A stretch of 64,000 nucleotides of DNA from Limisphaerales bacterium (GCA_965658675.1 CBFHTT010000031.1:51320-115319); one strand, 5' to 3'. Counted from the stretch's first letter, positions 10,739-43,331 are shown. Notes: a model not told the origin generated them from the letters alone. Numbers and translations: made by a program.

Positions 10739-10767
10739 ATCTGACTAACCCAAACCGTGGAAAGGCC

Positions 10768-11574: not shown

Positions 11575-12121
11575 AGTCCTTCAAATCCCCGACAATCACC
11601 TTCCCCATGATTTCACGTTCATAAACGACCCCGTGCTCATGTTCAAAAATGTACATGGAACGGTTGTCTCCGATCAAATAGTACTCGTTGTCTTTAAGAG
11701 TGATCGGTCTTTGAAACCAGGGGCGCTTTTCCCAGACATAAGGCTCGGGAATTGGTTTCCCATCGATCAACACCTCGCCATTCAAGATTCCCATCTGCTC
11801 ACCGGGCAAGGCGATGACACGCTTGAGAAAACAAAGTCCCCGGGTGTCCAACCACACGGCGACCACATCTCCACGCTGAGGTTTCTTCTCCTCTGAATAG
11901 GCTGTCCTGAGAACGAAGTTAATTTCTCCGTTCTTATAACTCACCGCCATGCTGTCTCCAGTAACCCTCACTGGCACCAGGAAGAATTTGAAGGTGATAA
12001 AGAATGTCCCGATAAGAACGCCCAAGCGGACCAATGTCCGCTTGGGGTTCTTACCAAAAAGCCATGGTGAAAAGACGATGGTCTCTTTCTTCTGAGCTTC
12101 GAGCTGGCCGGGATCATCCAT
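11501..12121 (-). CDS. lepB: Signal peptidase I.
   Basis: 206 aa. N-terminal TM. GDSMAVSY catalytic Ser box. GDNRSMY box. Typical S26 family. Confidence 0.85.
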   Translation of the reverse strand: MDDPGQLEAQKKETIVFSPWLFGKNPKRTLVRLGVLIGTFFITFKFFLVPVRVTGDSMAVSYKNGEINFVLRTAYSEEKKPQRGDVVAVWLDTRGLCFLKRVIALPGEQMGILNGEVLIDGKPIPEPYVWEKRPWFQRPITLKDNEYYLIGDNRSMYIFEHEHGVVYEREIMGKVIVGDLKDFDYNQYLLDERLLESKKKKHESGE

Positions 12122-12132
12122 CTACAACGTCT

Positions 12133-13767: not shown

Positions 13768-13785
13768 AATGGGATCAGGGGTAAA

Positions 13786-15393
13786 TCAGGGTTTCTGTCG
13801 AATCCATGAGAACAGCTCCTTGATCTTGGGAGGTTGCCCGGTTCTCAGGATTCCGATTCGAAAAATTTTTCCAGATAACCAGAGTATCAATCCGGTCGTG
13901 ACAACCATCATGATCAGAGTGCCCACTTGGTCAAACAAAGGCGGATCGGCTGTGGCACGGTTCATCATGATGAACGGAGAGAAACAAGGAATCCACGAAA
14001 GCACGGTCGCCAAGGTGCCATTTGGGTCCTTGGGGATAAACATCAACGTAAACAAGGGAACCATCATCAGAACAGTAATCAACCCCATGAAATTCTGTGC
14101 TTCCTTCAAGGTGTTACAAAGGCTGCCGATCGTTAAAATCACACCTGCATACATCATGTATCCAATGATGAAATACACGGCGAACCAGATCAGGAGATTC
14201 GATGTCTTCAGCACTTCAAACACCTGATAGGCCAATTCAAATTGAGGTCCGGCTTTCCACGCCAGCACGCCTATCAACGATGCAATCCATGTCGTGATCA
14301 TTATGAGCCCGATGGCGGCAATCCCCATCAGCTTACCCATCATCAGTTCCCCCGGTGTCACCGATGACAAGAGCACCTCAATGATCCGGTTTGATTTCTC
14401 CTCAATGGTATTGCTCAAGAGCATTTGACTGACGGTGAACACCGATATCCAGAGCAGATAGACGAACGCGCTCGGCGCCCATTGGCGGATGAAGTCAGCC
14501 ATGCTCACCTTTTCCTTACCCTTTTCCTTCTTTGGATTGAGCTTCGCGATCGGCGCTCTGCTCCGCTCAACAACGCGAACCACACCGACATCCACGCCCC
14601 GTGATTCATACTCACGCTTGCGGATCTCATCGTTGATCAGATTACGAACCTCGTCGTGCAACTGAAGATCCGCCAGATTCGGCGACCAATACTCAATGCC
14701 ATTGCGCCCCATCATGGCAGCAACGGGCGGTCTATCAGGTCGGTTCACCTGAGCCATGACATCCTTTGGAATCAGAATCGCAGCAAAGAGCTTACCTCCA
14801 TCTTCAAGTCCCGGAAGTTTCTGTCCTCCCCTAAGGTAAGGACGGAGTTCGCCAGCAATGTCAGAGACAGATTGATCAACTGAAATAGAATCAGGTAGAG
14901 GCACCAACGTGAAACGTCGCCTGGGTTCTTCAAACGGAGAAGCACCCTCTCCTATGAATCGTTCCAGCTGGTTCAAAACCATGTCCTGTCCACCCTTTTC
15001 CATGAAGGCATCCACAGCTGCAGGATTGGCAGAAGCAAAATCATCGAGGAAGCGTTCCACCTGACCATCAGGCGCAGGGATGGATTCCAGATCCACCTTC
15101 GCTGAATTGGTTTCCGTGTTCTCCATCGCATGCTTCTGCACATACTTCACCATGGCCTTCAAAACCTGTCTCTGGTGAAAACGCTCCATACCTTCCTTCA
15201 CGATCTCTTCAAACTCTCCTGATTGATCCACCAGAATGAAGTTACGCTGTGGTACAGCTTTTTCACCAATCAGGACTGGTACCTGAACAGAGATGAAAAT
15301 AATCAGAGGAAACAGGAGAATCCCAAGCCAGAATCCCTTGGTCCTGGCACTCTCGGAAAAGTCACGCATGGCAACCAGAAGAGCATGTTTCAT
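13786..15393 (-). CDS. ABC-2 family transporter permease (NatB-like) with large extracytoplasmic loop.
   Basis: 535 aa. N-terminal TM. About 300 aa periplasmic region. Five C-terminal TM helices typical of ABC-2 permeases. 4-nt overlap with the upstream ATPase gene. Confidence 0.75.
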   Translation of the reverse strand: MKHALLVAMRDFSESARTKGFWLGILLFPLIIFISVQVPVLIGEKAVPQRNFILVDQSGEFEEIVKEGMERFHQRQVLKAMVKYVQKHAMENTETNSAKVDLESIPAPDGQVERFLDDFASANPAAVDAFMEKGGQDMVLNQLERFIGEGASPFEEPRRRFTLVPLPDSISVDQSVSDIAGELRPYLRGGQKLPGLEDGGKLFAAILIPKDVMAQVNRPDRPPVAAMMGRNGIEYWSPNLADLQLHDEVRNLINDEIRKREYESRGVDVGVVRVVERSRAPIAKLNPKKEKGKEKVSMADFIRQWAPSAFVYLLWISVFTVSQMLLSNTIEEKSNRIIEVLLSSVTPGELMMGKLMGIAAIGLIMITTWIASLIGVLAWKAGPQFELAYQVFEVLKTSNLLIWFAVYFIIGYMMYAGVILTIGSLCNTLKEAQNFMGLITVLMMVPLFTLMFIPKDPNGTLATVLSWIPCFSPFIMMNRATADPPLFDQVGTLIMMVVTTGLILWLSGKIFRIGILRTGQPPKIKELFSWIRQKP

Positions 15394-22929: not shown

Positions 22930-25539
22930 TCAAACAAGCATCGGCTCCGGAGTCTCTGAATCGTAGACCTTGTCGAAAACCATTCTGAGTTTACGCGAGG
23001 AGATGGGTTTGCTGAGAAAGTCATTCATTCCAGCGTCCATACAGGCTTCCCTATCCTCCTCCTGCATACTTGCCGTCAGTGCAACGATCGTCAGGTCCGC
23101 ATTGGTGCCACTCATGGCCCTGATAGATCTGACAGCATCCATCCCGCTGATTCCCTCTATCTGACAATCCATCAGAACAAAATCAAACTCATCAGCAGCA
23201 AGCTTCTCCAAGGCTTCTTCTCCGCTTTCCGCGGTCTCGCACTTATGTCTCAGCTTCTGGACCAGTTTGGCAGAGAAGTTCCGATTGACTGGATCATCGT
23301 CCACAAGCAGAACGCGCATCCCCTTCTTTGACTTTCGCGCATCTCGGCCAAAGTTGGTTTCGCGTTTCTGTTCAGCCGGTCTCACGACAAAGTCTTCGTT
23401 TGAGAACTCCTGCAATCTGGAAAGCAAGAATCTGGATTGAATCGGACGGCCAAGGCACAGCCAACGGCTTCCATCGTGAAACCGTCCCAACGACGAACGT
23501 CGTTGAGGTGACGCGATCGGAACCACTCGCGCCCCAGCCGGGGCTCGATGCACAAATGCGGACTGAAAGGCGTTGATTCTAGTCTCATCAAACGAATCGA
23601 GATCAACCAGAACCGCCGGTTTGAGTGGTGCCCCTTCCGTCTTCGCCTTCTCCAATGCGTCCAGAACTTCAGACAAGGTCTCAAACTCCGTTACACTACA
23701 GGACCAATGACCCAACATTTCATTGAGTGCCTTTCTGACAAACGGATCTGGGAAACAGGTAAAGCAAGAAACCGCTGATAGCTCATCATCAAGTCGAACA
23801 TTCCCCGGGACAGGGGACGCCGCATTCTCAAAAGGAATCACAACGCCAAATACCGACCCCTTCCCTTCCACCGACCGGACAAAAGACCTGCCTCCCATCA
23901 TTTCAGACAATCGTTTGACAATGGACAGCCCCAGACCGGTTCCTCCGTATTCGCGTGTCATGGATGCATCCACCTGACTAAAACATTGGAAAAGGCGGTT
24001 CATTCGGTTGCGGGCGATACCAATGCCCGAATCTTTGACAATCATCTTCCACCTTCGGACACCGTCTGCGCCCATGGCAGATCCCACTCGAATTCTGACG
24101 ACTCCCTCATGAGTAAATTTGATGGAATTACCAACCAGATTCAGAAGTATCTGTCTGATCCTGTTTCCATCCCCACAAACCCAACTTGAATCTTTCATTG
24201 GCATGTAGAACTGCAGGTTCAGTCCGCGTTTCGATGCAAGATGACTGACGGTATCCACCACCTCTTCGATCGTCGTTCGAAGATCAAAGTCTGAATTCAC
24301 CAGTTCCAACTTTCCCGCTTCGATCTTCGAGAAATCAAGAATGTCATCGATGATCCCCAGTAGAGACTCCCCGCTGTTCCTGATCGTTTCAGCAAATTCC
24401 CGCTGCTCAGCATCAAGGTGCGTATCCAAGATAAGTTGGGACATCCCCAGAATTCCATTCATGGGTGTTCGAATCTCGTGACTCATAGTCGCGAGGAACT
24501 CGCTCTTAGCTTTATTGGCCACTTCAGATTTCTCGCGCTCCTCCTCCATGTCCTGCATCATGTTCAACATCGAGCTGCGCCCCTTTTCCAAAGAATCAGC
24601 ACGCTCTGAGAGTGTCTTATTGGCAAGCTCCAGATCCTCTCGGGCCTGTTTGAGACGATCGTTCTTTTCATCCACGGACCTGCGTGCCTCCTTCAACTGA
24701 TCATTGGATTTCTCCAATTCGAGTTTCTGCAATTGAAGAAGCCGGTTATTAAGAAGTGTTTCATTCTCATTTCGCCTTAAACGCCTAAACACAAACACCA
24801 TCATTCCCAACCCAACCAAGCCGAAGAAAGCAACCCTTACAAACACACCCTGAAAACCTCCGGCAGCCACAGTAGATGCATCCCTGATCGGAATCCTCAC
24901 TTCCAGTATTCCTCGCAAATCGCCTTCCACCCAATCCGTCTTAGGTGATTCTGGGTGAGAATTATGACAGTCCACGCACTCGGATCCCATCAAATCGGAG
25001 GTCGCATATCTCAGCACCCTTTCTCCTCCTTGGTTCACGATCTTTGAAAATGCTGTATGCGGATCGGTTGAAAGAGCCGCCCATGCTTCCTGCTGATACG
25101 CATCCATCTCCTTGTCCTCTTTCCATGGAAAAGGCCAAGGACTCACAAGTTCAGCATCAGCATCCCCTTCATGCAGGCCGATTCGCGCTCCTATTTCCTC
25201 AGTAAGAGATGCAGGAAGTGGCACAACTCCCTCCTTTCCATTGAACTCATGCGAAATCGTCACGCCTGAAACGTCTCCAAGTTTCCGAATTACTTGATCT
25301 GTATAAAGCTTCCGAAACTCGCCTAGAGAACGTGAGAGCATTCGGGCATTCTCGATAGCCGCCTCTTTAATCACCTGATCACGGGCATCGATCAATTTCC
25401 CGAAGACCACCCACCCAGACAAAGCGATCAGACAAGCCAACACGCTTCCCGGATGATGATGCAAAAGGTAGACAAGCCTGCCCAATCGGTGCTCACCAAC
25501 AACTTGCTTGGATTCAGAACTGTTATCGATGTGCTTCAT
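22930..25539 (-). CDS. Hybrid sensor histidine kinase/response regulator with N-terminal TM plus periplasmic CxxCH (heme-c type) sensor domain.
   Basis: 869 aa. TM. Periplasmic segment with [10 protein letters not shown]. Second TM. Coiled coil. HisKA H-box [15 protein letters not shown]. HATPase_c region with N, G1 and G2 boxes. C-terminal receiver [11 protein letters not shown]...[11 protein letters not shown]. Its start overlaps the stop of the Amt-PAS gene (ATGA). Confidence 0.85.
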
Positions 25540-27428
25540 ACCTTCTTCAGGTGATAGCGATCAGGATGACCCAACTGGCGTTCCAACATGTTGATCTCCA
25601 ACTTGAGATCCAGCATCTGCAGCTCCCTTCCCATGGCCAATTCATTAAACCTCTCCAATTCATTCATTCGAATCGTCAATTCCCTGCTCACCCGCTCTGC
25701 TTCTTCTCTCGACCTCATCAGCTCTAATTCATACTCCTTTCTGCGCGTAATATCTCTTACCAACAGAGTTCGTTCACCTTCTTCGCCTGAGCTTTTCGTC
25801 ACGGATACCTCGACTGGAAAACACCCCTTTCCCTTATTTTCCATCATGGCTTCAAACTGGTAACCACCTTTCTCCAACTCATAAAGCCACCGCGACTTCG
25901 CCCCCACGGAACCGTCTCCGCCGACAGGTTTGATACAATCCAGAATCGATCCATTCGCCCCATTCTCACCAAGCAATTCGCACGCCCCAGTATTTGCACT
26001 GGTGATCATTCCATCCTTGGTGACCGTCAGGATACCTTCTTTGAGATCTTCCAAAATCGCTTCACTACGGGTGATTTCCTTCTCCAAAGAATCAAGAAGT
26101 CGATTGAAAGCCATGGCCACCTGTCCAGATTCGGTAAATGGATTTCCAGGCAATCTGGAAGAAAGATCCAGGTGGTCCACTTTTTCCTCCATCGCCTTGA
26201 CCAGTTCACCCCGTTCATCGCTCGTAGCATGTTCAGAGTAGTTCAATCCATCAGCCTCGTCCTGAGCAGAAACCCTCAGCGGAACAATCCGATCCAGTGT
26301 TTTCCAAATCACATAACTGAAACACCCACCCCAAGCGAAACACATCAATGCCCCAAGAGACTGCACTAATAGGAGCTCCATCCTAGAAAGATCCGTTTCC
26401 ATCAACTCCAGATCGCCAAACAGTCCTACACACAGGATTCCCCATACACCACACACGCCATGGACCGCACCAGAGGAAACAACGTCATCCAAACGGAAAC
26501 TATGAAACAGCTTTTCAAACCATACCACCAACACGCCACCACACATGCCGATCATCAAGGACTGCTCTGCTGATACCCCGTGACAACATGCAGTGACTGA
26601 GACCAAGCCTCCAAGGGAACCATTCATCGGAAACCTGGCAGCAGCAAAACCGTAGATAAACCACCCCGCGACCAACGCAGCGATGGCTCCTCCAGCTCCG
26701 GCCAGAACGGTGTTCACAAGAACCCCGGGTACCTTGTCGTTCGCCACAAGCATGGCTCCACCGTTGAATCCCATCCAACCTACCCAAAGGATGACAACAC
26801 CCAACATTGAAAGAGGAAGATTCGAACCTTTGAAGTAACACGGAGTTCCATCTTCATTACAGAACCCCTGCCTGGCACCTATCACCATCACACAGGCCAA
26901 AGCACTGAATCCTCCGATGCCATGCACAACAGATGCCCCAGCAAAATCAATAAACCCCATACCTTTCAGCCAGCCTACCTCTCCCCCCATCATTCCTCCC
27001 CATACCCAATGTCCGAAAACCGGATAGATCAGGCATGAGATGACACAAGCCGCAATTAGATAAGATTTGAAAGAGACCCGTTCAGCAACCCCACCGGAAA
27101 GGATCGTGACAGCAGTCCCGCAGAACATGGTTTGAAACAAAAAGAAGACATTATCCTTCAATCCCGCATCCGACCCTACATCAAGCCGAAATCCACTCCC
27201 TCCAAAGATCCCTCCGATACTATCTCCAAACATCAGTCCATAACCCACCAGCCAGAACAAGAACACCGACAAACACAGATCGGTCAGGTTCTTGATCGCT
27301 ACATTGATGCTGTTCTTATTCCGTGTCTGACCGCTCTCGAGGCAAAGAAAGCCCGCTTGCATAAACAAGACAAGACCGGCACAGGCACAGATCCAGACCA
27401 CATCCAATTGGCTGACATTTTCAGGCAT
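25536..27428 (-). CDS. Ammonium transporter (Amt/MEP) fused to a cytoplasmic PAS domain and coiled-coil tail.
   Basis: 630 aa. About 420 aa of polytopic Amt core (11 TM helices, conserved Phe-gate and twin-His region). Then a PAS-like [24 protein letters not shown]. Then a C-terminal coiled coil. Translationally coupled to the hybrid kinase. Confidence 0.8.
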
Positions 27429-29328: not shown

Positions 29329-30060
29329 TCAGCCTCTCGACCTCACGGTCCCCAATCCACCGTCCACACCAAGTGTCTGACCGGTCACCCATGAGTTGGA
29401 TGGGGCCAGCAACCAAACCACAGCCGACGCAACCTCGGAGGCCTGCCCCACCCTTCCCAATGCATGCATCCGCTCTGACGCCTTCAAGGTCATCTCGTTA
29501 TTCAACAACCCTTTGGTCAATGGCGTCTCAGTCAGCCCGGGTGCAACCGTATTGATCCGAAAACCTCGCCCCCCATACGTCGCCGCTGCAGAGAGCATCA
29601 ATCCTTGAATCCCTGCCTTGGCTGCTCCGATCGCCTCATGATTCGCCAGCCCGATCCGACCGGCAGCAGAAGACATCAATACGACACTCCCCCCGTCCTT
29701 GGGCATATTTTTGGCAAAATGTTTCACCAACAAGAAACTACTGGTCAGGTTCACATTCATCGTCTGCTGCCAGACTTCCAAGGGTGTCATATGCGCCGGC
29801 TTCAACCACAAGGAACCGATACAGTTGACCGCACCATGAATCTCTTGCTCTGAGAAAAGCTTCTCCAAAGTCGCCTCAAAACCTTCAGGATCCGACGCAT
29901 CACACGTAAAGTCGATCGCTCCCGACTGAGACCGGCCTCCTCCGACGACTTCGGCACCTTTTTGTTCCAGCAACTTGCCTACCTGCCCCCCAATCCCACC
30001 ACCTGCTCCCAGAACAAGAATACGACGCCCTTCAAAGATTTTAGTGTTCGATTCACTCAT
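29329..30060 (-). CDS. SDR-family oxidoreductase.
   Basis: 243 aa. ILVLGAGGGIGGQVGKLL Rossmann motif. Confidence 0.8.
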   Translation of the reverse strand: MSESNTKIFEGRRILVLGAGGGIGGQVGKLLEQKGAEVVGGGRSQSGAIDFTCDASDPEGFEATLEKLFSEQEIHGAVNCIGSLWLKPAHMTPLEVWQQTMNVNLTSSFLLVKHFAKNMPKDGGSVVLMSSAAGRIGLANHEAIGAAKAGIQGLMLSAAATYGGRGFRINTVAPGLTETPLTKGLLNNEMTLKASERMHALGRVGQASEVASAVVWLLAPSNSWVTGQTLGVDGGLGTVRSRG

Positions 30061-30282: not shown

Positions 30283-30921
30283 ATGCAAGGACTGTGGACC
30301 AATGCCACCTCTCCGATAATCCTGCCCATTACGATGGTCATGGGCTTCTTGGCGCTTTATTGGATAATTTTCGCACTAGGATTTCTGTCCTTCGATACCG
30401 ACTTGGCCGAAGTCGATTTCGATGTTGACGCAGATTCCCATTCAGGTGTTTTGGGAGGGATATCTCACTACCTTCATATCGGCGAAATGCCGTTCATGAT
30501 TATCTTCTCGATTCTCACTTCCCTGTTCTGGCTGCTAAGCCTCTTGGCCACTCGCCTCTTCAACCCAGAAGGAGTTTTTGCTCTCGGGCTGGGACTAATG
30601 GCCGGATCGTTCTTCATCGCAGTTCTCGCTACGCACTACATCTCACTCCCCGTCAAGAAACTGTTCAGGGCACTCGACGTGGACGTCGACAAGGCTCCCG
30701 CAATGGTCGGCATAACTGCCACAGTAGTCACATCTAAGGTGACTTCGGATTTCGGTAGAGTCGAATACGTCCACAAGGGAGCCCCTCTTACGGTGGAGGC
30801 CCGTTCTGAATCGCTGCTCCAAAAGGGAGATCAGGCATTAATTTTGGAAATCATCGATAAGAAAAAGCGAATTTTCAAAGTAACTAAACAAGAAACAACT
30901 AAACTGGAGGAAGAATTATGA
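30283..30921 (+). CDS. NfeD/YqiJ-like membrane protein (flotillin partner): N-terminal TM helices plus C-terminal OB-fold-like beta domain.
   Basis: 212 aa. Four TM helices. C-terminal VGITATVVTSKVTSDFGRVEYVHKGAPLTVEARSESLLQKGDQALILEII resembles the NfeD short-form beta-barrel. Stop overlaps the flotillin start (ATGA at 30918). Confidence 0.6.
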   Translation: MQGLWTNATSPIILPITMVMGFLALYWIIFALGFLSFDTDLAEVDFDVDADSHSGVLGGISHYLHIGEMPFMIIFSILTSLFWLLSLLATRLFNPEGVFALGLGLMAGSFFIAVLATHYISLPVKKLFRALDVDVDKAPAMVGITATVVTSKVTSDFGRVEYVHKGAPLTVEARSESLLQKGDQALILEIIDKKKRIFKVTKQETTKLEEEL

Positions 30922-33083
30922 TCCAAGCATTTGCACCAGAATTGGGTGCTCTAATCGGATTCGGCATCGTCGGGTTTGTTATTATCCTATTCATCATTTC
31001 CCGATTCTATAGGAAGGTTGACCAAGGTGTCGCTTTGGTCAGAAATGGGTTCCAAGGGACCAAAGTCTATTTCACCGGCGCTGTCGCCTACCCGATTCTT
31101 CACAAAGTCGAGTTTATGGACATCTCCGTCCATAAGATTGAAATCTCACGCCGCGGTCCCGACGGATTGATCTGTAAGGACAACATGCGTGCGGACATCA
31201 CGGTCAACTTCTTCATCCGAGTCAACAAGGCAGAGGAGGATGTGAAGATGGTCGCCACCACCATTGGTTGTGAGCGTGCGTCTGACGTCAACGCCATCCG
31301 CGACCTCTTTGAAGCCAAATTCTCTGAGGGCCTGAAGACCGTTGGACGTCAATTTGACTTTGTGGAGCTCTACGATTCACGCGATCAATTCCGCGAGCAG
31401 ATTCTCAAGATCATTGGCACCGATCTGAATGGCTACGTGCTGGATGACGCCGCCATTGACTTCCTCGAGCAGACCCGCGTCGAAGACCTCAATCCAAACA
31501 ACATCCTTGATGCAGAAGGTATCAAGAAGATCACAGACCTCACTGCCGTTCAGGCCAAGCTCGCCAACCAGATCACCCGCGATAAGGAAAAGGTGATCAA
31601 GAAGCAGGACGTGGAGGCAAAGGAAGCCATCCTAGAACTTGAAAAACAGCAGGCTGAAGCCGAACAGAAACAGACCCGCGAGATTGCTACCATCACCGCC
31701 CGTGAAGTAGCCGAAGCACAGAAGGTCGAACATGAACAACGCCTCAAATCTGAGCAGGCTCGAATCAATTCCGACGAGGAACTCCAGATCGCTGAAGAGA
31801 ACAAGAACCGTCAGGTCATTGTTGCAGCCAAGAACAAAGAACGGACCGAAGCGGTCGAAACCGAGCGTGTTGAGAAAGATCGCCTGCTCGAAGTAACGGA
31901 GCGCGAGCGCATCGTCACTCTGGCCCAGATCGAGAAAGAGAAGGCAGTCGAGGTCGAACAGAAGAAGATTCAAGACGTCATTCGCGAGCGTGTCATGGTC
32001 GAGAAGTCCGTGGTCGAAGAGAAAGAGAAGATCAAGGATACCGAGGCCTTTGCTGCAGCCGATCGTCAGAAGAAGGTCGTTGTCACCGAAGCCGAAATGA
32101 AGGCGGAAGAGAACCTCGTTCAAGAGATCAAGGCAGCAGAAGCAGCCAAGAAGGCAGAAGAGCTCAAGGCAGACAGAGAAGCCTACACCGTCGTCAAGTC
32201 GGCAGAAGCCAAGAAGACTGCCGCAGAGCGCGAAGCAGAAGAGATCGTCATCAAGGCCGATGCATCACAAGAAGCAGCAGAGCGCGATGCCGCTGCCAAG
32301 AAGATGCTCGCCGAAGGAACCGTGGCCGAGACCGCAGCTCCTGGTCTGGGCGAAGCACAGATCATCGAAGCCAAGGCCGCAGCAGCAGAGAAAGAAGGTA
32401 CTGCAGAAGCCAAGGTCATGGAACTGAAGTTCGGAGCCGAGGCCAAGGGCACCGAGCAGAAGATGACTGCCGAAGCCACAGGAACAGAGAAGCAACTCAC
32501 CGCCGAAGCAGTGGGTGCCGAACGCAAGTTCGCAGCCGATGCGAAGGGTATCACCGAGAAGGCGGAAGCCATGAAGATCTTCGATGGTGTCGGTCGCGAG
32601 CACGAAGAGTTCAAGTTGCGCCTCAACAAGGACAAGGAAGTCGAACTGGCCTCCATCAATATCCAGAAGGATGTCGCAGGACATCAGGCAGAGGTCCTCG
32701 GCGAAGCACTCAAGAATGCCAAGGTCGACATCGTCGGCGGCGACATTCAGTTCTTCGACAAGATCGTCAATGCCATCACTACTGGTAAGGCAGTCGATCG
32801 CACTGTGAAGAACAGCGATACGCTCACGGACATCAAGGAAACCTTCTTCAACTCGGATCCGGATTACTTCCGCGAGCAGATGAACAAGTTCCTGAACCAG
32901 TTCGGATTCTCTTCCGAGGATGTGAAGAACCTCTCCATCGCTTCTGCCCTGGGCAAGATGATCCAAGGCAGTTCCGGTGAGAACAAGGCAACACTGCAGC
33001 GCATGCTCTCCGTCGCTGAGAATCTGGGCCTCCAGGATCAGTCTGTTTCCAACGTCCTCACTTCAGGTATCAGCAACTCCTGA
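30918..33083 (+). CDS. Flotillin-like SPFH/Band-7 protein (YqiK/FloT family) with long Glu/Ala/Lys-rich coiled-coil repeat region.
   Basis: 721 aa. N-terminal membrane hairpin IGFGIVGFVIILFIISRFY. SPFH core VALVRNGFQGTKVYFTGAVAYPILHKVEFMDISV. About 350 aa of EA-rich helix with 11-residue repeats. Confidence 0.85.
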   Translation: MIQAFAPELGALIGFGIVGFVIILFIISRFYRKVDQGVALVRNGFQGTKVYFTGAVAYPILHKVEFMDISVHKIEISRRGPDGLICKDNMRADITVNFFIRVNKAEEDVKMVATTIGCERASDVNAIRDLFEAKFSEGLKTVGRQFDFVELYDSRDQFREQILKIIGTDLNGYVLDDAAIDFLEQTRVEDLNPNNILDAEGIKKITDLTAVQAKLANQITRDKEKVIKKQDVEAKEAILELEKQQAEAEQKQTREIATITAREVAEAQKVEHEQRLKSEQARINSDEELQIAEENKNRQVIVAAKNKERTEAVETERVEKDRLLEVTERERIVTLAQIEKEKAVEVEQKKIQDVIRERVMVEKSVVEEKEKIKDTEAFAAADRQKKVVVTEAEMKAEENLVQEIKAAEAAKKAEELKADREAYTVVKSAEAKKTAAEREAEEIVIKADASQEAAERDAAAKKMLAEGTVAETAAPGLGEAQIIEAKAAAAEKEGTAEAKVMELKFGAEAKGTEQKMTAEATGTEKQLTAEAVGAERKFAADAKGITEKAEAMKIFDGVGREHEEFKLRLNKDKEVELASINIQKDVAGHQAEVLGEALKNAKVDIVGGDIQFFDKIVNAITTGKAVDRTVKNSDTLTDIKETFFNSDPDYFREQMNKFLNQFGFSSEDVKNLSIASALGKMIQGSSGENKATLQRMLSVAENLGLQDQSVSNVLTSGISNS
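32430..32570 (+). repeat. In-frame tandem 33-nt (11-aa) repeats inside the flotillin coiled-coil (AEAKGTEQKMT / AEATGTEKQLT / AEAVGAERKFA / ADAKGITEKAE).
   Basis: Direct reading of the protein sequence. Four consecutive 11-residue units. Confidence 0.6.
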
Positions 33084-33166
33084 TAGGTCACCCTGTCAAT
33101 CACCGGGGGACTCCAGCCGGAGTCCCCTGCCCTTTCATAGGGAATTCGTGAAACGTCATACAGACC

Positions 33167-36100
33167 ATGTCTGAAGAGGAAACAGAGATTCAGGAAGAAG
33201 AGCAGAGCCCGGATCAGCCCAAGCTTGAGGGGGGTGCCTATGAGATCATCCGTAGCAGGCTGAACTCTCGGGCCTCCGATCTTCGCGATCGACTGGATCA
33301 GCTCAACACGGCACGCAAGGAGGTCTTTGGAGCCATCCCTACTGCCCTGATTGCCACAGAGCGAGTCACCACGGCGAACAATTGCGTACCTCGCGATATG
33401 GTAGCCATCGGCGGCGGCGATTTCCTCTTTGCATACAATGTCCAATTCGGACTGAAGAACGAGATAGATGTCTCTGATGTCCTCGGAGGATATACCTTCA
33501 ATCGGGAAGACAGGACTTTTGCAGAAACGGATCTCCCCTTCCTCAAGGACGACATCTTCGTCAACGATTTCAAGCAGCTCTACAAGTATTACAAAAAGAC
33601 CATCTTTGCGAAGTTTTCATGGATCGGGCCTCACTTGTTCATGGTCTTTCGGATCGGAGATTCCGTAACAGACATCAAGACATTCAAGTGGCTCAAGCGC
33701 GGCGACGAAATGATCTACGAGGGAAACCGAAGCGATCACGAATTCGTCTACCCCACCCAGCATGAGTTTGAATGGAAACGCACACATCGCGACCTGCACA
33801 GGAGTGGTTTACATCCACACATCTCCATCGAAAACCGCGTGTACGTGGAGACTGTCGGCGGAGATCTGACCATCAAGGTCGAGGACAATACTGAGTCCGG
33901 TCACGGGATCTATTCTGAGCCCGTTGAGCAGGAGGATCAGACACTCGATGATGCAGAGATTTTTTACGCCAGTCTTGGCAATCTGATTCTTCTCAAGATA
34001 CGTCCCTATCAGGAGAACGAATGGCGTCATTTCGTCTACAATGAGAAGCTTCAACAAGTCCGGCGAATCGATGCGATGGAGGAATCATGTATCCTCCTGC
34101 CTGACGATCAGGGCATCATCTTCTCTACAGGTTATTATCTTCAGCTTGGTGAGTATAAGGAATTCCCCTCTGAACTGAGCAACATGATGTTTGAGCGCCG
34201 CATTCAGGCGCCAAACGGCGAGGACTTTCTCTACGTTTTCTACAACCGCAAGTCCGGCACCTATGTGTTGATGTCCTACAACATCATTGAGCAGCGGGTG
34301 GAGTCTCCGATCACCTGCAACGGCTTCAGCACCTTTGCCAATGGAGAACTCGCCTACTTCAAGGCTCAGGACGATCCACAGAAACACCACGTCATCCAAA
34401 TCTGGCAAACTCCCTACGTGGATGGCGACCTCCCCATCACCGAGAAAAGTGATTCAAAGCTATTCAAGATCGGCAACCCTTCCATTGTCCGATGCATGGC
34501 AGAGTGTCAGGAGATTCTGACGCTGCTGGGAAAAGAGGATTCCTACGCCGGTCTTTATATTGATCTGGTAAAGGATTCCGCATCCGTCGTGGATGCCTAC
34601 TTCTGGATCGGCGACGAAGAGACCTTTGACCTGAAGACGCCTCTCGTTTCCATCAAGGAAGCGGCCGCCAGCGCAATCGATGAATTCGACAAGGTTACCC
34701 GCCTCAAGAAAAACGCGGTCCAAGAACTTCAACGCATCGGAGGAGAAGCAGAGAAGCTCATCACCGAGGCATCCTTTGGACAGATAAGTGACATCAATGA
34801 GTTCGTCAATCGGCTCTCAGGCCTGAGAACAATTAGGGGCGAACTGATCTCACTGAAGGATGTCCGCTACATGGATGTCCCCGCCGTCGATTCCTTGGAA
34901 GAGCGCGTCGCGGAAGTCACAGAGTCCCTTTCTCAAAAGTGCGTCGAATACCTCCTCAAACCAGAAGCACTAGATCCCTACAAGGCGAAGGTGGATGGTC
35001 ACTCAGGCGATGTTGAAAAACTCACAAAAGTAACCGAAGCAAAGCCGCTGGCTGAACAGATCGCCGCCACTGCAAGTGAACTGGAGATGCTCATTGAGAT
35101 CGTCAGCAATCTAAAGATCGAGGACGCCACCCAGACCACACGGATCATCGACAGCATTTCCGAGATCTATGCTCCACTAAATCAGATCAAGGCAGCTCTC
35201 AAGCGTCGCAAATTGGATCTGCAGAAGACAGAGGGCGCAGCCCAATTTGCTGCTCAGCTTCGCCTGCTCGATCAGTCAGTGGTCAATTTCCTCGAAATCT
35301 CCGACACACCAGAAAAGTGTGAAGAGTATCTGAACAAGGTCATGATTCAGATCGAGGAACTTGAAGGTCGTTTCTCAGATTTTGACGATTACGTCCTACA
35401 ACTTTCCGAAAAGCGCGATGAACTCTACACCGCGTTTGAGAACAGAAAACTGGCACTCGTCGAAGCCAGGAACCGCCGAGCGTCCACCCTCTTTTCCTCA
35501 GCCGAGCGAATCCTCAAGGGAATCAAGCATCGCGTGGAGAATCTGGGTTCCATCAATGACATCAATGGCTACTACGCCTCCGATCTCATGGTGGACAAGG
35601 TCCGGGACATCATCACTCAGCTTGAGGAGATTGATGACTCGGTCAAAGCAGGCGACATCCAGAGCCAGCTCAAGACCATTCGTGAAGATGCCGTCCGTCA
35701 GCTGAAGGACCGCTCCGATTTGTTTGTTGATGGCAAAAACATCATTCAGTTCGGTAAACACAAATTCTCCGTCAACACACAGGAACTGGAACTCTCCATC
35801 GTTCTCAAGGACGACGAAATGTATTTCCACCTGGCGGGAACCGGTTTCTTCGAGAAGATCGAGGACTCAGAGTTCATCGCGACAAGAGGTGTTTGGAATC
35901 AGGAAGTCCCCAGTGAAACACCAGAGGTTTACAGAGCCGAATATCTGGCATGGTCTCTCCTAAACGACGCTGAAGCAGGACTCGAATTGAAGGATGCAGA
36001 GTCTGACTCTCCTGCCCTTCATATCAGAGATCTTGCAACCAAATCCGATGAGGAGCTGCTAAAGGTCGTGCAGGCCTACATGGCACCGCGTTATGCGGAA

Positions 36101-38542
36101 GGTTACGTCAAAGGTGTCCATGACCACGACGCCAGCAGCATTCTCAGAGAACTGGTGAACATGCATGGATCCATCGGTCTGTTGAGATTCCATACTCAAG
36201 CCCGCGCCTGCGCATCTGTCTTCTGGAAGACCTGTGATGACGAGATCATCCAGGCAAAACTCCAGTCATTCAGCGTCCGCAACCAACTCTTTCCCGGACA
36301 GCCCACACAGGAGGAATACATTGCGGAACTCCAGTCACTCATCCGAGATTTCTGCGAACAGACCAAACTCTTCCCCTCTCATCTTGCCGACGAAGCCGGA
36401 GAATATCTTTTCTACGATCTGACAAAGGAGCCCGGCCGCAAACACTTGGTGGTCAGTCCACAGGCTGCTGCCCTTCACAAGGCTTTCGACCTTCACCTCA
36501 AGACGAAACACTTTGCGAAGAAGCTCGAAGATGCACGCAAGGTGATCAGCTCCAACACCATTGCAGAGTTCAGTCTCTTAAGGGATTGGTTGACCGCCTT
36601 TCTGAATCAGTACAAGCCAGACGAAGGCCATCCGGCACTGGACGCCGCCTACATCGATGAAGCCTGTGCCATTCTCCTTCGAGGCCTGCTGGATCATCTG
36701 GACATCATCAATGCATCCGTCGAGACCAAGATCGAGAAGCTCTCCGGTAATCACGCGAGAATGGAAGATGGTTCCCTGCTACTGAATTACAACGAGTTGA
36801 TGTCTCGGCTACAGGAACATCAGCGAGAGAACGTCCCCCTCTTCCATCGCTACCACGAGCTTAAGAGTCATCTGATCGAGACCAAACGCAAGGACCTCAG
36901 GCTGCATGAATTTGAGCCGCGCGTACTATCCAGTTTCGTCCGCAACCAACTGATCAACGAAGTCTATCTGCCCATCGTGGGTGACAACCTCGCCAAGCAG
37001 ATGGGCGTGGTGGGTGAAGACACCCGGACCGACCGCATGGGACTGCTGCTCCTGATCTCCCCTCCTGGTTACGGTAAGACGACTCTGATGGAGTATATCG
37101 CCAATCGTCTCGGTCTGATCTTCATGAAGGTCAATGGTCCAGCAATCGGCCACAGCGTCACCAGTCTTGATCCTTCAGAAGCACCAAATGCGAGTGCACG
37201 GGAGGAAATGGAGAAACTCAATCTGGCATTGGAGATGGGTGACAATGTCATGCTCTATCTGGATGACATCCAACACACTCATCCCGAACTCCTGCAAAAA
37301 TTCATTTCACTCTGTGATGCTCAGAGAAAGATCGAGGGTGTCTACAAGGGGGAAGCCAAGACATACGACCTACGCGGCCGCAAAGTCTCTGTAGTCATGG
37401 CTGGTAATCCCTACACCGAATCTGGTGACAAATTCCAGATCCCAGACATGTTGGCCAACCGTGCCGACACCTACAACTTGGGTGATATCATTGGCGACAC
37501 TCGCACGGCTTTTGAGACCAGTTATCTGGAAAACTCACTCACATCCAACCCTGTGTTGAGCAAGCTCAGCAGCCGTAGCCAAAAGGACGTCTACGCCATC
37601 ATCAAGATCGCAGAGAGAGGTTCGCGTGAGAACGTTGATTTCGAAGGCTCCTACTCCCCGGAAGAGATCAACGAGATGGTCGACGTCATGAAGAAGCTCA
37701 TGAAGGTGCGCGACACCGTCCTACGGGTAAATCTCGAATACATCGCATCTGCAGCTCAGGCAGAGGAATACCGGACCGAGCCACCGTTCAAGATGCAGGG
37801 TTCCTATCGTAACATGAATCGCATGGCCGAGAAGATACTCCCAATCATGAACGATGCGGAGGTCGAGGCACTGATCAACGATCACTACAAGAACGAAGCA
37901 CAAACCCTGACGACCGGCGCTGAGTCCAATCTCCTCAAATTTCAGGAAATACGCGGCACACTTGCGGGTGAAGACGCCGATCGTTGGGTGGAGATCAAGA
38001 AGACCTTCAAGAAGAACCTCCTGCTACAGGGAGCTGACGGAAACGATCCCGTATCACGAGTCGTCGCCCAGTTGGCTACATTCACTGCCGGACTGGATGC
38101 CATCCAGACCACTATCGCAGCCGTGAGCAAGGAGAAGAACGCACCTGAATCCAGCCCTGAGCTCATTCAAGCCGTTGAGGAAATCAGCTCCGTCGGAGGA
38201 GCGCTCCAATCAATTGAAAACGCCATTCGTCAGGCTCTTGAAAACACACCAAAGGAATCCGCCCCATCCATCGACCTCACTCCGTTAAGCAATCACCTGA
38301 ACACCTTTGGCAAATCACTCGATGGAATCCAGAAAGCGCTTCATACAAACGCAGACGAATCATCGTCAAAAGGAGAGCTTAGAGTCATCGATGAAGCCAA
38401 CGAAGTCAGCGACTACCAGATCGCCAACATCTCCCGCAGCACCCTGAAACGGATCTGGGAAATCATCGCCACAGAACGTGAACGGGAAGCAAAGAAAAAG
38501 GGGACAGTCCCACCGGAACTGCCCCCTGAAAAATCTGAGTAA
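33167..38542 (+). CDS. Giant (1791 aa) protein with a MoxR-type AAA+ ATPase module near the C-terminus. The N-terminal 400 aa are beta-strand rich and the middle 800 aa helical.
   Basis: Single uninterrupted ORF. Walker A LLLISPPGYGKTTLMEY (about residue 1298). Walker B VMLYLDDIQH. MoxR-like sensor region VVMAGNPYTESGDKFQIPDMLANRAD (compare ATQNP.E.G...LP.A.LDRF). No TM segments. 84 nt downstream of flotillin on the same strand. Confidence 0.8.
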   Translation: MSEEETEIQEEEQSPDQPKLEGGAYEIIRSRLNSRASDLRDRLDQLNTARKEVFGAIPTALIATERVTTANNCVPRDMVAIGGGDFLFAYNVQFGLKNEIDVSDVLGGYTFNREDRTFAETDLPFLKDDIFVNDFKQLYKYYKKTIFAKFSWIGPHLFMVFRIGDSVTDIKTFKWLKRGDEMIYEGNRSDHEFVYPTQHEFEWKRTHRDLHRSGLHPHISIENRVYVETVGGDLTIKVEDNTESGHGIYSEPVEQEDQTLDDAEIFYASLGNLILLKIRPYQENEWRHFVYNEKLQQVRRIDAMEESCILLPDDQGIIFSTGYYLQLGEYKEFPSELSNMMFERRIQAPNGEDFLYVFYNRKSGTYVLMSYNIIEQRVESPITCNGFSTFANGELAYFKAQDDPQKHHVIQIWQTPYVDGDLPITEKSDSKLFKIGNPSIVRCMAECQEILTLLGKEDSYAGLYIDLVKDSASVVDAYFWIGDEETFDLKTPLVSIKEAAASAIDEFDKVTRLKKNAVQELQRIGGEAEKLITEASFGQISDINEFVNRLSGLRTIRGELISLKDVRYMDVPAVDSLEERVAEVTESLSQKCVEYLLKPEALDPYKAKVDGHSGDVEKLTKVTEAKPLAEQIAATASELEMLIEIVSNLKIEDATQTTRIIDSISEIYAPLNQIKAALKRRKLDLQKTEGAAQFAAQLRLLDQSVVNFLEISDTPEKCEEYLNKVMIQIEELEGRFSDFDDYVLQLSEKRDELYTAFENRKLALVEARNRRASTLFSSAERILKGIKHRVENLGSINDINGYYASDLMVDKVRDIITQLEEIDDSVKAGDIQSQLKTIREDAVRQLKDRSDLFVDGKNIIQFGKHKFSVNTQELELSIVLKDDEMYFHLAGTGFFEKIEDSEFIATRGVWNQEVPSETPEVYRAEYLAWSLLNDAEAGLELKDAESDSPALHIRDLATKSDEELLKVVQAYMAPRYAEGYVKGVHDHDASSILRELVNMHGSIGLLRFHTQARACASVFWKTCDDEIIQAKLQSFSVRNQLFPGQPTQEEYIAELQSLIRDFCEQTKLFPSHLADEAGEYLFYDLTKEPGRKHLVVSPQAAALHKAFDLHLKTKHFAKKLEDARKVISSNTIAEFSLLRDWLTAFLNQYKPDEGHPALDAAYIDEACAILLRGLLDHLDIINASVETKIEKLSGNHARMEDGSLLLNYNELMSRLQEHQRENVPLFHRYHELKSHLIETKRKDLRLHEFEPRVLSSFVRNQLINEVYLPIVGDNLAKQMGVVGEDTRTDRMGLLLLISPPGYGKTTLMEYIANRLGLIFMKVNGPAIGHSVTSLDPSEAPNASAREEMEKLNLALEMGDNVMLYLDDIQHTHPELLQKFISLCDAQRKIEGVYKGEAKTYDLRGRKVSVVMAGNPYTESGDKFQIPDMLANRADTYNLGDIIGDTRTAFETSYLENSLTSNPVLSKLSSRSQKDVYAIIKIAERGSRENVDFEGSYSPEEINEMVDVMKKLMKVRDTVLRVNLEYIASAAQAEEYRTEPPFKMQGSYRNMNRMAEKILPIMNDAEVEALINDHYKNEAQTLTTGAESNLLKFQEIRGTLAGEDADRWVEIKKTFKKNLLLQGADGNDPVSRVVAQLATFTAGLDAIQTTIAAVSKEKNAPESSPELIQAVEEISSVGGALQSIENAIRQALENTPKESAPSIDLTPLSNHLNTFGKSLDGIQKALHTNADESSSKGELRVIDEANEVSDYQIANISRSTLKRIWEIIATEREREAKKKGTVPPELPPEKSE

Positions 38543-38551
38543 CCGAAAGCG

Positions 38552-39070
38552 TCAAGCAGCTGTGTTGACGTTGACGACGTCGCGATGGGAAGCGTTGCTT
38601 CCATTGACGTGATCGCCATTCATCTTGATGGCTTTGCCCGGCGTCGTTGCCATTTGCAACACCCTCAATGCTGCTGCCAAATCCTCTGAACTCAGCTCAG
38701 CCTCGTGGTCAGTGACGTAGGCTTCTAGAGCATTCTCAATAGAACCATTGAAATAGGTTTTCAGCACCCTACGGAGTGCCGACCGTCCAGCACGTTTGCG
38801 CTGACGGCACGAAAAATAGAGAAATTCCCTGCCCTTCTGTTTGTGTTTGATGTGCCCTTTCTCCTCCATGATACGCATGAGCGTCCTGACAGAGGTTCTG
38901 GACGGAGGATCTTCAATGCGCTCGAGCACATCGTTCACCGTGGCTTCGCCCAATTCGAAGATGGCATCCATGATTTGTCGCTCCCTACGACTGAAATTGC
39001 TCGTCTCTTCCATAACTTCAATTGCTGATAGATTTACACTTTGTTGCGTTCGATCCGAACACCAACCCAC
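38552..39070 (-). CDS. BlaI/MecI/CopY-family transcriptional repressor. Likely start MEETSNFS near 39010.
   Basis: LSRRERQIMDAIFELGEATVNDVLERI winged-helix N-terminus typical of the penicillinase-repressor family. No BlaR1-type M56 sensor gene adjacent. Confidence 0.7.
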   Translation of the reverse strand: MGWCSDRTQQSVNLSAIEVMEETSNFSRRERQIMDAIFELGEATVNDVLERIEDPPSRTSVRTLMRIMEEKGHIKHKQKGREFLYFSCRQRKRAGRSALRRVLKTYFNGSIENALEAYVTDHEAELSSEDLAAALRVLQMATTPGKAIKMNGDHVNGSNASHRDVVNVNTAA

Positions 39071-41768: not shown

Positions 41769-43331
41769 CTAACGAAGGTAGCTCACCAGCCCTTTCCGTA
41801 TCGCTTCGCGGTTCTCTGCGTCCCTGAATTCCGTCGGATTGAAATCATCTGTCAGTACAATACCGCTCTCCGGATTCGTCACCGTCGTTCCCTCATATGC
41901 CCTCTGCACAACTCCCTGAACCTGAGGATGGATGTTGGACATATCCGGTTGCCTCACGAACTCCAGAGTCTCCCGCTTGGATGCGACAAAGAATACGTTG
42001 CCATTTCCTGAATGATGGATCCTCACCGAGCTGAAGACCGACTGCAGTGTCTGATCCAATGACGATGTGAAGAAATCCTGCCCCGGCTCAAAATTTCCAA
42101 AACTGTTGATCACCAAGACAGCCTCATTTGACATGACTTTGGCGATCCCTTGAAAGGCCTCCTTTGACATCAGATGCGACGGAGATGCATCGCCAAGGAA
42201 CGCATCCAAAATCACACAGTCATATTGCTCATTGCTCTCGTTTACGAAATGGCGACCGTCGTCGATGACAATGTTCATGCGATCTGGCTCCAGCCCAAAA
42301 TACTGTTTCCCCACATCGACCACCTCTGGATTGATTTCCACCACATCCACCTCGACTCCCTCGTCCACAAGGTCCATAGGCACAATTCCCACGCCCAACC
42401 CAATGCAGAGCGTCTTTTCGTTCTGTGGCACATAGACCTTGGACAAGCCATGAAGCATGTATGTGAAAAGCGTTGTGCTCTGTTCCGTTGCCGGATCGTA
42501 AATATTCTGTGTCAGGCGATCATTCAGGTAGTAGAGATATCCCGAGTCCTTTGCCTTCCAGACGCGCAAGTCTCCAAAATTTGAATTGCGGCGATCCAAC
42601 TCATCAAAGTCCTTTGAATCCATTGTCAGGTCTGCCCGCGCAGCCAATCCTCCGATCAAGAGCGCCACCACACTAACGCCCGCGGCCTTCACCTTCCCTG
42701 CCTTCAATCCCCAGATCGCAAAATAGCTTCCACCCAACACAAGCAACACCAATGAAGTTACCCACATGGTCACCGAATTCGGCATGAGAGGGATCAGTAC
42801 ATACCCAATCAACACTGCACCAAAGACACTGCCAAAGGTGCTCACTGCAGAAAGTCGTCCTACCTGTCCGCCGACCTTGGAAAGATCCAACGTAAGAACA
42901 CGGATAAAGAACGGACCAACCGCAGCCAACAAAGTTAGAGGAACAAAGAAGAGGAACATCGAAGCGAGAATCGACCCAACCGACAGCTTGAACCTCAGAC
43001 AACTCAGCGCGACTGCTTCAGTCATTCCCAAGGTCAACGCAAGGTAGACGGCAGCCCCCATGATACAGGCATAGATTCGCTTTAGATCTGCCGCCTTATC
43101 GACCATCCAGCCGCCAAAATAATACCCCACTGCCAAGGACACCAAGGTCACCGATATCTGGGCAGTCCACACGAAATGGGAGGTCCCCAGAAACGGAGAT
43201 AACATTCTGGCTCCCAGAATCTCAACGATCAGGATGCACGCCCCCGTCGTCGCAGCGGTCAGGTAGAGATACCGACGTAACCCGTCACTGATCTCGTCGG
43301 TCTTCTTTGCTTTGTCAGTCTTTGCAGCCAT
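41769..43331 (-). CDS. Polyamine aminopropyltransferase (spermidine/spermine synthase)-like domain fused to an N-terminal polytopic membrane domain.
   Basis: 520 aa. About 7 TM helices in the first 210 aa. C-terminal CIGLGVGIVPMDLV...VDVVEINPEVVDVGKQYF...DDGRHFV...DCVILDAF matches the SpeE-family SAM-fold motifs. Confidence 0.7.
   Translation of the reverse strand: MAAKTDKAKKTDEISDGLRRYLYLTAATTGACILIVEILGARMLSPFLGTSHFVWTAQISVTLVSLAVGYYFGGWMVDKAADLKRIYACIMGAAVYLALTLGMTEAVALSCLRFKLSVGSILASMFLFFVPLTLLAAVGPFFIRVLTLDLSKVGGQVGRLSAVSTFGSVFGAVLIGYVLIPLMPNSVTMWVTSLVLLVLGGSYFAIWGLKAGKVKAAGVSVVALLIGGLAARADLTMDSKDFDELDRRNSNFGDLRVWKAKDSGYLYYLNDRLTQNIYDPATEQSTTLFTYMLHGLSKVYVPQNEKTLCIGLGVGIVPMDLVDEGVEVDVVEINPEVVDVGKQYFGLEPDRMNIVIDDGRHFVNESNEQYDCVILDAFLGDASPSHLMSKEAFQGIAKVMSNEAVLVINSFGNFEPGQDFFTSSLDQTLQSVFSSVRIHHSGNGNVFFVASKRETLEFVRQPDMSNIHPQVQGVVQRAYEGTTVTNPESGIVLTDDFNPTEFRDAENREAIRKGLVSYLR

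Follow-up and report, generated by a model that had tools for sequence, protein, structure and literature searches.

An operon encoding a YqiJ/YuaF protein with three transmembrane (TM) segments, a Band-7/flotillin protein and a 'beta-propeller + coiled-coil + AAA-ATPase', often together with CesT/Tir and PspA genes, has been described by Ravi et al. (mSystems 2024, PMC11237479; bioRxiv 2020), with the context of ANH61663.1 from Dokdonia donghaensis as its prototype. The same study gives a wider distribution for abbreviated operons, which consist only of flotillin, YqiJ/YuaF and sometimes the ATPase. The 64,000-nucleotide (nt) stretch of DNA from a Limisphaerales bacterium analysed here (GCA_965658675.1 CBFHTT010000031.1:51320-115319; hereafter the window) carries such a locus at 30283-38542, where a YqiJ-like membrane protein and a YqiK-type flotillin are followed by a 1791-residue soluble ATPase, hereafter the giant. 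The window triad has the same gene content, order, strand and per-protein domain architecture as the published operon, a correspondence of architecture and synteny, and it represents the abbreviated three-gene form only. The giant shares with the published family a DUF3686 propeller, a central coiled coil, a C-terminal AAA+ module and a position after flotillin and YqiJ. The association of the three genes has thus already been described computationally, and the window triad is a further member from an uncultured organism; the first-pass annotation of this stretch, which had called such a machine 'not described for bacterial flotillins', is superseded in this respect by the published operon and its abbreviated form.

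The first two genes are homologous to those of the E. coli YqiJ-YqiK pair and stand in the same arrangement. However, no giant ATPase or other third gene follows yqiK in E. coli, and the window flotillin is 168 residues longer than YqiK, has a dissimilar C-terminal extension and does not match Band_7. The closest structural neighbours of the AAA+ core of the giant are probably found among the MoxR ATPases, the family of NorQ, CbbQ and RavA. However, the giant adds about 1250 N-terminal residues, comprising a propeller and a coiled coil, and it has a D-D instead of a D-E Walker B motif and no Pfam AAA_3 match. MoxR systems typically include a partner with a von Willebrand factor A (VWA) domain and a metal ion-dependent adhesion site (MIDAS), whereas no such partner gene was found beside the giant in the loci analysed.

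The linkage of the giant to the flotillin pair is conserved over a long evolutionary distance. More than 4800 relatives of the giant with 53-65% identity are spread across phyla, the nearest being 65% identical to the window protein; across phyla the giants retain 50-65% identity over about 1700 residues, and giant and flotillin are both conserved at 50-60%. Gene order was assessed in 80 species-representative genome loci whose giants are at least 50% identical to the window protein, with tblastn for the flotillin. A flotillin gene lies upstream on the same strand in 69 of these loci, and four of the other 11 have less than 400 nt upstream, leaving 76 informative loci. Linked loci come from Planctomycetota, Verrucomicrobiota, Bacteroidota, Desulfobacterota, Omnitrophota, Hydrogenedentota and Kiritimatiellota. 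When open reading frames (ORFs) were clustered over 81 loci including the window, the only family-wide neighbours were the flotillin (68/81) and the YqiJ-like gene (59/81). More distant members were collected by searching the propeller against 1.84 billion cluster representatives (E up to 1e-3), which gave 762 clusters at 50% identity with identities down to 29%; the propeller was found only in giants of about 1600-1930 residues, the length of all full-length members. A second set of 80 metagenome loci, fetched with an alignment of the most distant giants, was analysed with hidden Markov models (HMMs) of the neighbour families. In this distant branch the flotillin is upstream of the giant in 70 of 72 informative loci, and YqiJ is upstream of the flotillin in 54.

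Coincidental adjacency would leave the giant with no functional tie to the flotillin pair, and nine informative loci without an adjacent flotillin, as well as a strong hairpin between flotillin and giant in the window, could be cited for it. However, 139 of the 148 informative loci, which represent at least seven phyla and giants with as little as about 30% identity, keep order and strand. The nine exceptions are sporadic, scattered over the family without forming a clade. A flotillin-independent paralogue was considered as the source of the unlinked loci and rejected, as their nearest relatives are flotillin-linked. In the reverse direction, three proteins of the flotillin subfamily from long contigs were checked, and all of them (3/3) have a giant directly downstream. 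A predominance of giants lacking flotillin, which the first-pass annotation had named as a sign of chance adjacency, is the opposite of what was found in both the genome (69/76) and the metagenome (70/72) loci. The neighbourhood counts thus exclude coincidental adjacency, which is left with next to no probability, and YqiJ, flotillin and giant very probably constitute one functional unit.

Two records of the family are irregular. One giant, encoded at 10193-14994 of locus L086, is split into two ORFs of 565 and 920 residues in a single long-read assembly, reflecting a frameshift or a pseudogene, and a 57%-identical match from a eukaryotic proteome set (P0028) is probably a bacterial contamination.

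An extended form of the operon is present in 12 genome loci (L026, L032, L033, L041, L048, L060-L062, L064-L066 and L069) and six metagenome loci (L139, L146, L158, L163, L165 and L168), where genes for PspA/IM30 (Pfam, 4e-41) and CesT_Tir_1 (4e-54) lie upstream on the same strand. The genome loci of this form belong to Bacteroidota wherever the record names the phylum. A divergent gene with helix-turn-helix (HTH) and S24 LexA-like domains stands alongside in 11 of the 12 genome loci and five of the six metagenome loci, L139 being cut by the contig end. The complete order, divergent HTH + S24 LexA-like gene, CesT_Tir_1, PspA/IM30, YqiJ, flotillin and giant, matches the published gene string exactly, and at least five further loci have a weaker PspA-like gene in this place. 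The presence of a LexA-like regulator may mean that the operon is induced by damage or stress in Bacteroidota. In Bacillus subtilis, YdjI is reported to recruit PspA to the membrane (PMC8581546).

The triad is found in unrelated genomic contexts, as would be expected of a conflict or anti-phage (abortive-infection) system in which a large NTPase with repeat sensors would recognise infection and switch on SPFH/YqiJ as an effector at the membrane. Such systems typically feature giant P-loop NTPases that sense through propeller, TPR or ANK domains, and toxin-like and DUF559-like genes lie between flotillin and giant in a few loci. However, the neighbours of the triad are housekeeping genes and not defence islands, the best PADLOC matches cover only the P-loop (IetA, 8e-4 over 30 residues; mad8, 5e-3), conservation across phyla is very high, and the fast divergence that would mark defence genes is not seen. 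Together with the link to PspA, which points to stress maintenance, this makes a defence function quite improbable.

The 212-residue product of the first gene had been read as an NfeD/YqiJ-like membrane protein with an OB-fold. Its YqiJ-like nature holds, with a Pfam YqiJ_N match (E 4e-5) narrowly past the cut-off and a BLASTP match to E. coli YqiJ (5e-7) that includes the C-terminal part; the E. coli YqiJ and YqiK sequences used for comparison were taken from the K-12 genome. A hydropathy scan places three hydrophobic segments at about residues 8-39, 64-93 and 96-118, and an alignment of 15 relatives with E. coli YqiJ gives a common layout of TM1, an acidic D-x-D loop, TM2-TM3 and a beta-rich C-terminus. 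The Pfam YqiJ_OB and NfeD models do not match the protein, and the OB-fold, which follows from the alignment to YqiJ alone, is best regarded as putative. The start of the gene differs between gene callers on identical metagenome contigs, at 30298 (207 residues) or 30349 (190 residues) as against 30283 (212 residues). The loop after TM1 (residues 40-55, about 30400-30450) contains an alternating acidic run D-x-D-x-D of variable length, in this protein and in its relatives, and extends to about 60 residues with His-rich stretches in locus L047. This acidic loop may be a cation-binding feature.

Judged from its sequence, the 721-residue protein is clearly a YqiK-type flotillin of a divergent subfamily. 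BLASTP aligns it with E. coli YqiK at 32% identity over 436 residues (residues 15-441, E 6e-48), covering the SPFH domain and the following coiled coil, and hhalign gives a probability of 100. Close relatives are named flotillin, YqiK or SPFH by NCBI and JGI. The flotillin pair had been called 'canonical', a description that the kinship with YqiK supports and that the Pfam result does not: a scan of the protein with E up to 10 returned no family, Band_7 and Flot included, none of 19 scanned relatives has a Pfam match, and none is on record for 120 relatives among those listed. A PDB sequence search with this flotillin alone returned nothing, and the sole PDB-type match is a weak profile match to QmcA (8z5g). 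The last ~170 residues have no BLASTP similarity to YqiK. The C-terminal extension is nevertheless conserved within the subfamily, whose alignment contains the conserved columns H562, E563, E564, F565, G607, G608 and F612.

The giant matches Pfam DUF3686 at residues 38-479 (1e-181), DUF7902 at residues 600-682 (6e-30) and, weakly, AAA/AAA_5 at residues 1294-1417, and a hydropathy scan detects no TM segment. Members of the family are named 'DNA repair ATPase' or 'MoxR-like ATPase' in databases. AlphaFold2 models of two overlapping segments, both built from alignments of 37 sequences, have a mean predicted local distance difference test (pLDDT) of 79.7 and 75.6. The model is all-beta from residue 60 to 414, with about 28 strands at a pLDDT of mostly 85-92, and the Foldseek matches of the N-terminal model in the PDB are mostly beta-propellers (Elp1, Rrn6, CyRPA, the clathrin N-terminal domain, Ski8, PON1 and prolyl oligopeptidase). 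Matches to clathrin and nucleoporin prompted a membrane-coat interpretation, with a clathrin-like propeller and a helical region, which was set aside because the propeller alone explains them. Some giants carry additional repeats before the propeller (ANK in P0014 and P0073, TPR in P0063 and P0066), which would suit an N-terminal end that binds partners or clients. The middle domain and the linker behind it have no Pfam match above noise. The middle region includes the conserved columns G863, H865, F867, N870, R975, E978, Y980, K982, G983, H985 and D988. The ORF had been thought to end in the AAA+ module; instead, a tail of 190 residues follows it.

The nucleotide-binding motifs of the giant appear intact, with D-D in place of the canonical D-E in Walker B. 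Walker A with its lysine, the sensor-1 residue N1414 and R1432 of LANRAD are invariant across the alignments, the distant branch included, and a beta-hairpin precedes sensor 1. In MoxR proteins the motifs follow the order Walker B, helix, beta-hairpin and xxNPxxExG...(L)xxR(F/A)D. The run DDIQH...LLQKFISLCDAQRKIEG...VVMAGNPYTESG..IPDMLANRAD of the giant presumably parallels DEINRA...LLEAM.ER.VTI.G...ATQNP.E.EG..LPEAQLDRF of MoxR. The signature first transcribed as AGNP-x-E-x-G reads AGNP-YT-E-S-G...LANRAD, that is, AGNP-xx-E-x-G. Foldseek with the C-terminal model of the giant places NorQ first (E 1.6e-3), followed by RuvB, nucleotide-binding domain 2 of ClpB, CbbQ and MCM; the MoxR ATPases NorQ and CbbQ are the likely closest structural neighbours of the core. 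Pfam AAA_5 spans the whole AAA+ core, whereas the classical AAA family covers just its first half. However, Pfam AAA_3 does not match the giant, a comparison of the family with E. coli RavA by hhalign was insignificant (probability 8, single-sequence template), and PDB sequence searches reached only the P-loop of p97 and RuvB, so that the AAA+ clade cannot be classified from these searches. The first assignment to the MoxR/dynein family is therefore kept as the best available one and is not secure.

The weak similarity to RuvB_N bears on the database name 'ATPase involved in DNA repair', derived from Pfam, NCBI and COG. If the name were taken at its word, the giant would act in DNA repair and its adjacency to the flotillin would reflect SOS-type co-regulation only, as the divergent HTH + S24 LexA-like repressor gene flanking the extended PspA/CesT operons might suggest. 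However, the RuvB similarity is limited to about 45 residues around the P-loop, Pfam and NCBIfam detect no nuclease, helicase or DNA-binding domain, and the conserved partners are membrane proteins, with no DNA-repair gene among the conserved neighbours. A repair enzyme is accordingly a very improbable identity for the giant.

The gap between flotillin and giant is 83 nt, one fewer than first counted, and contains a stem-loop at 33104-33129 (CGGGGGACUCC / AGCC / GGAGUCCCCUG), an 11-bp GC-rich hairpin without a U-tract that ends 37 nt before the ATG of the giant. The whole spacer folds with a minimum free energy of -34.4 kcal/mol (z -4.2), and none of 200 shuffles was as stable. Across 82 related loci with spacers of 40-350 nt, the median folding z is -3.3 and 72% lie below -2 against mononucleotide shuffles; some of these spacers contain textbook intrinsic terminators and others hairpins without a U-tract. 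The first-pass annotation had taken the three genes for a single operon. A scan of the spacer for a consensus promoter or terminator calls neither, but the strong hairpin and the structured spacers family-wide make a single operon uncertain. The 37 nt after the hairpin would be too short for a sigma-70 promoter and leader. Because a structured spacer is what the family generally has in this place, transcription is probably attenuated between flotillin and giant instead of being simple co-transcription. Most likely the hairpin terminates part of the transcripts or stabilises their 3' ends, and the scaffold would then be far more abundant than the enzyme. The conserved structured spacer after the flotillin appears to be a new observation.

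Small selfish-looking ORFs of the DUF559-like endonuclease type or toxin-like are inserted in the flotillin-giant gap in loci L044 and L064-L066 and just upstream of the giant in L011 and L074, and such insertions account for some of the larger flotillin-giant spacers.

The three genes travel together across phyla with the same domain architectures, and the overall best explanation, which we consider on balance probable, is a conserved membrane module made of a scaffold and its dedicated ATPase. By analogy with solved SPFH complexes, the flotillin would oligomerise into an SPFH scaffold or cage at the inner membrane, on its cytoplasmic side, and together with YqiJ it would make up a membrane scaffold comparable to other SPFH/NfeD complexes (QmcA-YbbJ, HflK/C). 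SPFH cages with AAA+ or NfeD partners are an established theme, with HflK/C-FtsH and QmcA-YbbJ as examples. The giant may hexamerise through its single AAA+ module, so that its coiled-coil arms and propellers could reach the flotillin assembly, where the subfamily-specific C-terminal extension of the flotillin is a plausible docking site. ATP turnover would then assemble, remodel or dismantle the scaffold, or PspA polymers or clients held by the scaffold, in a phage-shock-like response to envelope stress. The stem-loop after the flotillin gene would limit read-through, so that far more scaffold protein than enzyme is made.

That the giant is specifically a remodeller of flotillin/PspA scaffolds is a narrower claim and falls somewhat short of probable. 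More tentatively still, the giant could be an AAA+ machine that serves a bacterial flotillin exclusively and without proteolysis, which would make it the first of its kind. It would form a MoxR-like hexamer of roughly a megadalton whose coiled-coil arms carry propellers at their tips. This hexamer would open, take apart or reshape SPFH cages of the YqiK type, as well as PspA/ESCRT-III-like polymers in loci that also encode these, much as Vps4 does for ESCRT-III, and the conserved hairpin would hold the amount of the giant well under that of the scaffold. For the scaffold-and-ATPase module, Ravi et al. 2024 (PMC11237479) reached the same contextual prediction. Because the remodeller hypothesis is already in print in a general form, only its experimental demonstration would be new.

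The flotillin could instead be a platform only, recruiting the giant to membrane microdomains as a MoxR-like chaperone or maturase for other clients, such as damaged or assembling membrane complexes, in the way HflK/C corrals FtsH but without a protease. Such a division of labour would suit the MoxR-type neighbours NorQ and CbbQ, which are maturases or activases of other enzymes, as well as the propeller and the ANK/TPR additions of some relatives, which look like client-recognition modules; in addition, S. aureus FloA-NfeD is reported to stabilise unfolded proteins. However, the neighbourhood contains no conserved client gene or VWA adaptor, and the one-to-one coupling with a flotillin subfamily bearing a special C-terminal extension points to the scaffold itself as the partner. 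A platform role is therefore unlikely, though it is the strongest of the competing explanations.

Several observations weigh against a dedicated ATPase that remodels the scaffold. Walker B is D-D and not D-E in every giant examined, including members with only about 30% identity; hydrolysis of ATP may accordingly be slow or otherwise unusual, and the giant could be a nucleotide switch instead of a motor. The canonical aromatic pore-loop residues are lacking, as judged by eye, and AlphaFold2 confidence is low around the P-loop and the NP...RAD segment. No VWA/MIDAS partner was found in any of 160 loci: clustering of all ORFs within +/-10 kb in 80 loci gave no further conserved neighbour, the second 80 loci being searched only with HMMs of known neighbours, and the window neighbours of the triad contain no VWA domain. 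Searches of the 64-kb window with HMMs of the PspA and CesT genes that accompany related triads detect neither gene, and a LexA-like regulator and a phospholipase D are likewise absent from it. The hairpin after the flotillin might also stop transcription completely, and the giant would then depend on a promoter of its own that has escaped recognition. Finally, literature searches found no experiment on interaction, ATPase activity or phenotype of the triad; searches on DUF3686/PF12458 and a flotillin-linked ATPase returned no paper, and such an ATPase goes unmentioned in a 2026 survey of SPFH proteins from Pseudomonas.

The scaffold-and-ATPase module shares its concept, a membrane scaffold polymer served by a hexameric AAA+ protein, with HflK/C and FtsH, with prohibitin and the m-AAA protease, and with Vps4 acting on ESCRT-III/PspA-type polymers, although the likeness is one of analogy only. 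The giant family is partly operon-linked to PspA. However, FtsH and m-AAA are proteases anchored in the membrane and Vps4 belongs to the classical AAA clade, whereas the giant is soluble, lacks a protease or MIT domain and is nearest to MoxR.

The coordinates of the triad are collected in Table 1; the ORF positions bear out the initial report of three ORFs on one strand, all of which are on the + strand. The start of the flotillin gene overlaps the stop of the YqiJ-like gene by 4 nt (ATGA), with a GGAGG Shine-Dalgarno sequence upstream. A short-chain dehydrogenase gene flanks the triad divergently and a BlaI-like repressor gene convergently. The latter has a terminator-like hairpin with a T-run at 38499-38527 (- strand), inside the last codons of the giant, where KKK codons read as the T-run on the opposite strand; the convergent pair thus has its 3' end region in common.

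Table 1 Positions of the triad, its protein regions and its flanking genes in the window
Feature	Residues	Nucleotides	Strand	Remarks
Short-chain dehydrogenase gene		29329-30060	-	Divergent flank
YqiJ-like protein gene	212 in total	30283-30921	+	
YqiK-type flotillin gene	721 in total	30918-33083	+	
Flotillin, N-terminal membrane anchor	4-34			Hydropathy scan; single N-terminal hydrophobic segment
Flotillin, SPFH region	about 35-210			
Flotillin, E/A/K-rich coiled-coil region	about 211-560			63% E+A+K+R+Q
Flotillin, C-terminal extension	about 555-721			Subfamily-specific, conserved
Flotillin-giant intergenic spacer		33084-33166	+	83 nt
Giant soluble ATPase gene	1791 in total	33167-38542	+	Uninterrupted
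Giant, helix	24-54			AlphaFold2; precedes propeller
Giant, N-terminal beta-propeller (DUF3686 core)	about 58-420	33338-34426	+	AlphaFold2, Foldseek
Giant, helical/coiled-coil region with DUF7902	439-851	34481-35719	+	AlphaFold2; DSSP helices of 20-58 residues
Giant, middle domain (small, beta/alpha, conserved)	about 860-1010	35744-36895 with linker	+	AlphaFold2
Giant, helical linker and short beta element	about 1004-1243	35744-36895 with middle domain	+	AlphaFold2
Giant, AAA+ module (single)	about 1250-1600	36914-37966	+	
Giant, Walker A SPPGYGKTT	1298-1306	37058-37084	+	
Giant, Walker B MLYLDD	D1366, D1367 (invariant)	37250-37267	+	D-D at 37262-37267
Giant, MAGNPYTESG...LANRAD	1411-1434	37397-37468	+	N1414 and R1432 invariant
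Giant, C-terminal tail (helical, variable)	1601-1791	37967-38539	+	Low alignment conservation, pLDDT 30-70
BlaI-like repressor gene		38552-39070	-	Convergent flank

Further from the triad, a gene at 41769-43331 (- strand) encodes a 520-residue protein with a spermine/spermidine synthase domain at residues 291-437, preceded by ~290 residues without a Pfam match. TM-fused spermine-synthase proteins have been tied to PspA operons by Ravi et al. (PMC11237479). The gene in the window is separated from the triad by 3 kb, is encoded on the other strand and is not conserved next to the triad elsewhere. On the other side, a gene for an ammonium transporter fused to PAS domains (25536-27428, - strand) overlaps by 4 nt a gene (22930-25539, - strand) for a hybrid histidine kinase/response regulator whose sensor domain is Tll0287-like, and the two resemble a signalling pair that senses ammonium through Amt. 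Scans of the window for Rfam families and tRNAs gave no match.

The function of bacterial flotillins and the opening and turnover of SPFH cages are unsettled, and a conserved, dedicated ATPase partner would provide a concrete handle on both. The giant family is large and present in many phyla, and its name, 'DNA repair ATPase', is uninformative or misleading. For annotation, such genes would better be read as flotillin/PspA-associated membrane-remodelling ATPases than as DNA repair enzymes.

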